951 nucleotides of DNA, from the NCBI RefSeq assembly GCF_003334785.1, contig NZ_QOWV01000069.1; one strand, given 5' to 3'. Positions 1 through 951 of the stretch are shown here, piece after piece. Origin of the DNA: Escherichia coli. Lineage in GTDB: Bacteria; Pseudomonadota; Gammaproteobacteria; Enterobacterales; Enterobacteriaceae. How positions within the stretch are numbered: position 1 is the first letter of the stretch; the number at the start of each line of letters is the position of its first letter. Below the pieces are notes generated by a model, which was given only the letters and a program-made list of their open reading frames with translations, did not search any database and had not been told where the DNA came from. The position numbers were made by a program, and so were the translations under genes.

Positions 1-237
1 CCCCTGCAGCGGGTCATAATAGCGGTGGCGGTTGTAATACAGGCCGGACTCCTCATCATACTGCTGCCCCGGCAGGCGGATAAGCTGCTGCAGCTGATGC
101 GGGTTCTCTTCATTCAGCAGGTTGCCCCATTCATCGTATTCTGCGCACCATTCTGTTGCCCCTTCCGTGCTGATAAGCGCCAGCGGCAGGCCGCGATGGT
201 CGCAGTGGTACAGGTGGATTTTTCGCGCCGGCGTGTA
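1..237 (-). other. N-terminal portion of the RHS repeat-associated core domain (TIGR03696-like), truncated by the window edge before the DPxGL motif
   Basis: Residues ~239-317 of the in-window translation ([79 protein letters not shown]) match, from memory, the pattern of this domain: a YD-type repeat, then 'xRxPGQYYDEETGLYYNxxRYYDPxxGR', then DPxGL. The domain start is approximate and the assignment rests on recalled motif knowledge, not a computed HMM score. Confidence 0.7.
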
Positions 238-951
238 CACCGGGTCCATCTGGTTTTGCATCTGCTCCACGGTCAGGCCGCACGATGCCAGCCAGCGGCG
301 GCTTTCCTCACTCACCCGGTCAGCCAGGATTTCACTTTCCAGCCGGTCGAGCATCTGCACCAGCACCGGCGGGAACACCACACTGCCACCGTCTTCGCCG
401 CCGGACTGCTGAAGGGTATCCGCCAGGCTGCGGCGCTGCGTTTTCGCCAGCTCACCGGTGGCGGTTTCAACCCTGATGAGTGGCGTGAAGCTCCCCGGCT
501 GATAAATCGTCTGGATGCGGGTTCTGTCGTTCTGTATCGTGGTCAGGCGGTCGCCGTCCCAGCCGTACCAGGTCACTTGCGGTTTCCGTGACAGCGACAT
601 CCAGCCCGTCAGGTCCCGTTCACGTCGCCACACCCGTTTTGCCACCCTGCGGCCCAGCGGGTCGTAAAGATAGCGGCTTTCGACCAGCGGCTCTGCATAT
701 TGTGTCCGCGTGTAGTGCACCAGCCGGTGCTGACTGTCGTAATGGTACCGGTGGGTGCGCTCATCATCCGTGCGGATAACCCCTTCCGGGATGAGGTCGG
801 TTTTCTCTGTCAGCCTGCCGTGACGGTCATACCGGTAAAGATAGTGCGCGTCACGGGCGATACGGTTATCCGGCCACATGCTGAGGGTGCTGTCCGGGTG
901 CAGCTCCGGGTCGGGCAGGCGGTTACCTGCCGGGTCTGTGGCATACGGGAT
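1..951 (-). CDS. rhs: Rhs family YD-repeat core protein, internal/3'-proximal fragment (partial at both ends; no start or stop codon in window)
   Basis: Reverse-complement frame in register with + position 1 is open for 317 codons; I checked it block by block and found no stop. Translation (N to C, + 951 down to 1): [317 protein letters not shown]. It contains multiple YD-repeat signatures (xYxYDxxGRL-like) and the characteristic '[21 protein letters not shown]' segment that precedes the DPxGL motif in Rhs core proteins. G+C is about 62% by hand count, as expected for enterobacterial Rhs cores. The paralog (rhsA/B/C/D-type) cannot be assigned from this fragment. Confidence 0.93.

Follow-up and report, generated by a model that had tools for sequence, protein, structure and literature searches.

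The window, by which we mean the whole 951-nucleotide stretch of Escherichia coli DNA analyzed here, is an ordinary stretch of the rhsC toxin-delivery gene of E. coli, and a very common one. Most probably it is the 951-bp block of core homology of the rhsC locus, as the orphan copy, the copy within the main gene or a contig in which the two have collapsed, and what follows it would be either the RhsC/YbfB or the YbfO/YbfC pair. The block encodes the last third of the Rhs YD-repeat cocoon together with the start of its C-terminal plug. It is carried twice in most strains, inside full-length rhsC and again as the whole conserved part of an orphan that comes after rhsC-ybfB. The original prediction for this DNA recognized an Rhs core that stops short of its toxin; the nature of the window as a block duplicated between main gene and orphan is something that it missed.

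An Rhs core fragment open from end to end

Read on the minus strand from window base 951, the sequence is a single frame of 317 codons with zero stops that reaches base 1, with the ending that had been quoted for it. Such a frame stayed open in 1 of 20,000 composition-preserving shuffles of the window. The translation matches the NCBIfam profile NF041261 (RHS_core) with an E value of 8.6e-207 over profile positions 913-1229 of 1261, and 32 positions of the profile remain past the window. Its score of 689.7 bits is under the whole-protein cut-off of 2000 because the window holds a 317-aa fragment only. The RHS repeat-associated core domain (TIGR03696) was also found (37.6 bits against a cut-off of 32.5), with only positions 1-42 of its 76 inside the window. 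The features of the window are as follows.

1..951, minus strand: C-terminal third of the Rhs YD-repeat shell, rhsA/B/C subfamily (open frame with neither start nor stop in the window; RHS_core match)
1..951, no strand assigned: main/orphan repeat block (full-length rhsC plus 5'-truncated ybfO/rhsO), delimited by the limits of exact identity between the copies
1..72, minus strand: first part of the C-terminal plug (aspartyl-protease domain), 24 residues, ahead of two D-x-x-G-L motifs (translation and RHS_core match; role according to PMC8636562)
4..138, minus strand: start of the RHS repeat-associated core domain TIGR03696, positions 1-42 of 76 (window residues 272-316; the other 34 positions lie past coordinate 1)
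109..219, minus strand: Pfam RHS protein signature PF03527 (E=9.6e-15; found at residues 250-286 in the translated orphan of 506 aa, corresponding to window residues 245-281)
124..271, no strand assigned: stretch dense in SNPs, with 11 of the 17 positions at which K-12 rhsC departs from the window; the window allele is orphan-type here (copy comparison)
703..771, minus strand: YD repeat TIGR01643 (window residues 61-83)

Antisense to the Rhs frame there is a 188-aa ORF with a GTG start (window 25-591, plus strand), and several shorter ORFs lie likewise. It resembles the shadow ORFs that usually accompany G+C-rich genes, with no sign of being a real gene.

Genomic distribution and identity of the locus

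Of 5,426 complete E. coli genomes, 3,888 match the window at 95-99.9% identity, and the median number of places is 5 per genome. None of these 5,426 genomes has a 100% match, the best being 99.8-99.9%. A 171-nt allele from the most polymorphic part of the window (positions 130-300) was absent from the GTDB species representatives and present in six metagenome contigs, for which the best identity over the full window was 99.7% and none was identical throughout. All the matches of at least 99.8% in complete genomes sit at the rhsC locus, between ybfA and ybfC. The locus is flanked by kdpFA-ybfA and, at its other end, by ybfC, ISAs1 remnants, ybgA and phrB. The usual order within the locus is rhsC (4.2 kb), ybfB, an AT-rich spacer of 45 bases, a 5'-truncated pseudogene (ybfO/rhsO in K-12, annotated as "RHS repeat-associated core domain-containing protein") and ybfC. 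The copies compared differ from the window, over its 951 positions, as follows.

Orphan copies: 1 mismatch in ESY002, 1 in TSW4848-W1 and 2 in K-12-like strains
Full-length rhsC: 1 mismatch in ESY002, 3 in TSW4848-W1 and 17 in K-12-like strains
K-12 rhsA: 13 mismatches
K-12 rhsB: 14 mismatches
K-12 rhsD: 78% identity only

By these counts the window best fits strains like ESY002, in which the main and orphan cores have been homogenized.

The window coincides with an exact repeat between main gene and orphan

In ESY002, no difference separates the two copies of the block (L001 7001-7951 and 8872-9822), and both depart from the window at a single position. The longest exact run common to the rhsC and orphan copies of this strain is 951 bases long and starts at window coordinate 1, with mismatches between the two copies directly outside both window ends. 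The left end of the window is the final base ahead of the first main/orphan difference, and its right end is the point where the core homology of the orphan starts, i.e., the truncation point of the orphan. Since it is implausible that both ends fall by chance, to the base, on the limits of identity, we infer that the maximal exact main/orphan repeat of a genome of this type gave rise to the window, by extraction or in assembly, and that it is either a single one of the two identical copies or a contig into which the repeat collapsed; the coincidence was read in another strain, ESY002. Across the strains compared, main and orphan copies share 98.2-100% identity over the 951 bp. [quoted passage not shown] The original prediction had allowed for additional orphan toxin/immunity modules beyond the window, and the ybfO-ybfC orphan of the rhsC locus is just such a module.

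Because the block is common to main gene and orphan, the left flank of the window is ambiguous and could hold either the RhsC tip and ybfB or the YbfO-type tip and ybfC. In ESY002 the full-length rhsC contains a copy identical to that of the orphan, and the window fits either of them. It may itself be a 5'-truncated orphan copy, and two different tips follow coordinate 1 in one and the same genome. A window that ends on an exact repeat within its own locus has no unambiguous extension, and claims about the attached toxin need long reads or a junction PCR. The same layout of main gene plus orphan was seen at other rhs loci, one with core ends duplicated ca. 2.3 kb apart (L013 174-344 and 2468-2638), and K-12 rhsA is followed by two successive orphan fragments, each with its own small ORF (L003 9170-10126 and 10633-10851).

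Continuation past the window in close relatives

The sequence past coordinate 1 was read in relatives at 99.3-99.9% identity to the window. In every near-identical locus, the next 32 codons consist of a 10-residue segment, 17 further residues and the motif D(P/S)xGL. The D-x-x-G-L boundary ended exactly 32 codons past coordinate 1 in all six continuations, the number of profile positions left in RHS_core, and the estimate that the window stops about 30 codons short of the core/toxin boundary was thus accurate. A first motif, DPIGL, lies 6-10 codons past the window, and 17 residues separate it from the second D-x-x-G-L motif. The frame runs on to the boundary motif with no stop or frameshift in the closest loci, and we saw no outcome that would contradict the original prediction. 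By analogy with Rhs1, in which cleavage takes place after two DPLGL motifs 17 residues apart and the catalytic aspartate belongs to the second (PMC8636562), the plug would cleave itself after its second D-x-x-G-L motif and free the toxin tip.

The continuations of rhsC and of the orphan open with the same 23 residues. A closing DPxGL motif had been expected, and this was borne out for the rhsC continuation (DPLGL) but not for the YbfO-type one, which has DSMGL. Among the loci of at least 99.3% identity, the longer motif PxxxxDPxGL appears as PISNIDPLGL (rhsC), PVINVDPQGL and PISDIDPLGL. The YbfO-type boundary reads PVQYIDSMGL, in which the aspartate, glycine and leucine are kept and the proline is replaced by serine. 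Homologs of the YbfO-type tip have proline, serine or alanine at this position, with D, G and L constant.

In the rhsC copy, ISNIDPLGL is followed by ETLKCIKPLHSMGG..., the start of a cysteine-rich tip of 150 aa (its residues after DPLGL begin ETLKCI...), and then by ybfB, which codes for a largely hydrophobic protein of 108 aa. In the orphan copy, VQYIDSMGL is followed by ASKYGHLNNGG..., the start of a proline-rich tip of 152 aa (its DNA contains TAGGCGGTTTGTTGGGTCTC at L001 6844-6863 in ESY002), and then by ybfC (189 aa), which overlaps the ORF of the YbfO-type tip by 4 bases. YbfB is a membrane protein, and YbfC looks like a secreted one. YbfC starts with MKRVLFFLLMIFVSFGVIA, directly followed by DC, and this start, judged from its residues, would be a Sec signal peptide. 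At both copies, G+C drops in steps, from 0.60-0.65 in the core to ca. 0.45 for the tip and then to 0.30-0.41 for the small ORF. The AT-richer tip and the small same-strand ORF that had been anticipated past coordinate 1 are therefore both present in the relatives, with ybfC or ybfB directly after the tip.

A scan of the orphan region for promoters and terminators gave 9 sites against 5.6±2.2 expected, i.e., not above chance. Within this overall result, one sigma-70-like site, a weak one with 9 of 12 matches, is located on the minus strand at the start of the YbfO-type tip (L001 6878-6907). Internal expression of orphan Rhs toxins has been reported in Salmonella (PMC7043789).

Three architectures at one locus

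The rhsC locus is found in three architectures, namely the RhsC tip with ybfB, the YbfO-type orphan with ybfC, and an intact rhs gene to which the YbfO-type tip is fused. The junction of ybfB, spacer and truncated core was present in 2,646 of the 5,426 complete E. coli genomes. A query made of the YbfO-type tip, the window and 500 bases of upstream core was covered over at least 80% of its length in 1,074 of them, in which the fused arrangement is either contiguous or interrupted by insertion sequences (IS). The YbfO-type tip itself is single-copy in about 3,540-3,570 genomes. These DNA junction queries answered what the protein search for full-length carriers left uninformative; that search returned fragments of 718 aa at most, since it is the core that decides how full-length Rhs proteins cluster. 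The largest of these fragments (P0035, 718 aa) has a normal N-terminus and early YD repeats joined straight to a further segment and then the YbfO-type tip. Its appearance is that of a protein that lost most of the shell through an in-frame internal deletion from one YD repeat to another.

The fused form is well represented by isolate F1267, whose intact gene of 4,200 bp codes for 1,399 aa, ends in the YbfO-type tip and has no ybfB next to it; it has two mismatches to the window. Beside it, ybfC is annotated as frameshifted (L006 5934-6504), and kdpA has an internal stop in the same sequence. An assembly error is as likely an explanation of the ybfC frameshift as a true loss of the putative immunity gene. 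In 23CRST036 (L007 5001-11527), IS903B and IS3 break up the fused rhs with the YbfO-type tip; they are inserted in the region equivalent to the window, near window positions 22/23 and 347-352. The same broken configuration was seen in at least 14 other genomes among the matches listed, and all of these are probably one lineage.

This fused arrangement, of the F1267 or enterohemorrhagic E. coli (EHEC) EDL933 type, is the first alternative origin to be weighed for the window, which would then be single-copy, with nothing but the YbfO-type tip and ybfC in its left flank. It is common, the F1267 gene is intact and only two differences away, and in EDL933, whose genome versions conflict at rhsC (z0847 separate from z0851 in one, fused in the other), PCR favored the fused form (PMC7216683). 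The rhsC-specific primer of that study maps within the YbfO-type tip, and the two versions disagreed at exactly this repeat. However, a single copy gives no reason for both window ends to fall on the limits of main/orphan identity, and the nearest match over the full window, with one mismatch, is a two-copy genome. We consider a fused origin of the window unlikely, and the two-copy repeat remains the preferred reading.

The fused form could be either the state before displacement of the tip (PMC2935791) or the product of recombination across the block. The homogenized copies of ESY002, set against the 17 differences of K-12, indicate that exchange between the copies is ongoing. From the distribution of architectures in the population, recombination at the 951-bp block seems probable, and, extrapolating from other Rhs loci that have been published, the block may be a substrate for RecA-dependent swapping or displacement of tips between main gene and orphan. 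In Salmonella, recombination between main gene and orphan across 522 bp at 95% identity has been selected experimentally (PMC3967940), and in E. coli attached and dissociated tips have identical core regions (PMC2935791).

The core allele does not fix the tip

In metagenomes, cores like that of the window (98.4-99.7% identity) were joined to four tips, RhsC, YbfO-type and two others starting VDINLYPESD... and SMWEDAKSGAC..., and all four follow a D-x-x-G-L motif that ends 32 codons past coordinate 1. The core alleles are mosaic, and the exact 171-nt allele of the window adjoins at least four different tips. We had considered assigning the tip from core SNPs and rejected it for this reason, since likeness of the core allele cannot fix what is attached to it.

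This mosaicism raises the question of whether the window comes from another paralog or locus of the rhsA/B/C subfamily with a different known tip, for example one of the last two. Gene conversion homogenizes cores between rhs copies, and the metagenome contigs that carry these tips have the identical 171-nt allele and 99.3% identity over the full window. Against this, all the matches of 99.8% or more in complete genomes are at the rhsC locus, K-12 rhsA and rhsB differ at 13-14 positions, and the right end of the window is the truncation point of the orphan of precisely that locus, all of which makes another paralog very improbable. Slighter still are the chances of a toxin/immunity pair past coordinate 1 that is undescribed and absent from current E. 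coli genomes, to which the original prediction had pointed as the place for any such pair: Rhs tips are highly polymorphic (PMC3967940) and the exact window is absent from every collection searched, but the window is 1-2 substitutions away from loci with the two K-12 pairs, which occur in 2,646-3,570 of the 5,426 genomes, and no near match had an unfamiliar tip. Since thousands of genomes carry the two candidate pairs, and both are already annotated in K-12, a new pair is not to be expected next to the main/orphan block.

Families and putative function of the tips

The two tips and their small ORFs are putative toxin/immunity pairs. Neither NCBIfam nor PADLOC gave a match for the RhsC tip, the YbfO-type tip, YbfB or YbfC, and Pfam gave none for either tip or for YbfC. 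A sequence search against solved structures retrieved no relative of the YbfO-type tip or of YbfC. The AlphaFold models from the analysis of the tips were of low confidence (mean pLDDT of 50, then 61; pTM of 0.34 and 0.39), and with a best E value of 4.1 in Foldseek against the PDB, no fold was assigned.

The YbfO-type tip belongs to a small family with 28 representatives in 1.84 billion proteins, every one of them the C-terminus of an Rhs protein. It is kept down to ca. 31-42% identity; some Cys, Tyr, Pro and Trp positions are invariant, and the members have in common the motifs SPYDYTQYC(R/K)KW and (I/L)PxGYxC and a basic C-terminus. Homologs of the tip and of YbfC are also paired in a vgrG-linked locus and in Phytobacter, and this conservation in other genera speaks for selection on a cognate module. 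One metagenomic contig of enterobacterial type (L014/L015 429-7132) has a tip homolog (ca. 70% identity) and a YbfC homolog (67%) after vgrG, DUF6531 and RHS-repeat ORFs. The Rhs ORFs of this contig are fragmented, possibly by sequencing errors. From such gene neighborhoods, the YbfO-type family would thus be linked to type VI secretion systems (T6SS) outside the E. coli rhsC locus. At the rhsC locus itself there is no vgrG/eagR or T6SS cluster among the neighbors (kdpFA, ybfA, ISAs1 remnants, ybgA and phrB). The protein of F1267 starts with MSGKPAARQGD... and matches DUF6531 (E=4.8e-18), while it reaches only E=0.18 with the Pfam PAAR_motif. Tentatively, the YbfO-type tip and YbfC might be an uncharacterized toxin/immunity family whose fold is new and whose target lies outside the cytoplasm, a suggestion that we rate at somewhat below even.

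Comparison with known systems

Descriptions of Rhs cores, their boundary motif, tip/immunity modules and orphan arrays go back to 2009-2014, and the locus is already present in K-12. The residual interest of the locus is modest and lies in the activity of the two putative K-12 tip/immunity pairs. The closest relative is K-12 itself, in which rhsC-ybfB and ybfO(rhsO)-ybfC occupy the same locus (ybfA to ybfC, with ISAs1 remnants) and have the same continuation, tips and small ORFs. Its orphan core differs from the window at 2 of 951 positions and its rhsC at 17.

The arrangement also resembles the rhs-main/rhs-CT-orphan locus of Salmonella Typhimurium LT2 (Koskiniemi et al. 2014, PMC3967940), which has, like the rhsC locus, a full-length main gene, a 5'-truncated orphan with core sequence in common with the main gene, and two immunity genes. 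In both there are recombinants with the orphan tip fused to the main gene. However, the block of homology measures 951 bp at 98.2-100% identity at the rhsC locus and 522 bp at 95% in LT2, and the tips are unrelated. Recombination was seen in evolution experiments in LT2, whereas at the rhsC locus it is suggested by the natural variants. In the C-terminal displacement model (Jackson et al. 2009, PMC2935791), a dissociated tip, with an identical or nearly identical core fragment, lies silent downstream; the window is an instance of this model and adds nothing new to it.

Compared with the T6SS Rhs effectors of solved structure, the rhsC locus differs in having no adjacent vgrG or eagR and in the second motif of the YbfO-type continuation, DSMGL. 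Rhs1 of P. laumondii (PMC8636562) combines a YD-repeat shell with a plug in which two D-P-x-G-L motifs are 17 residues apart, and the same spacing is found in the continuations of the rhsC locus.
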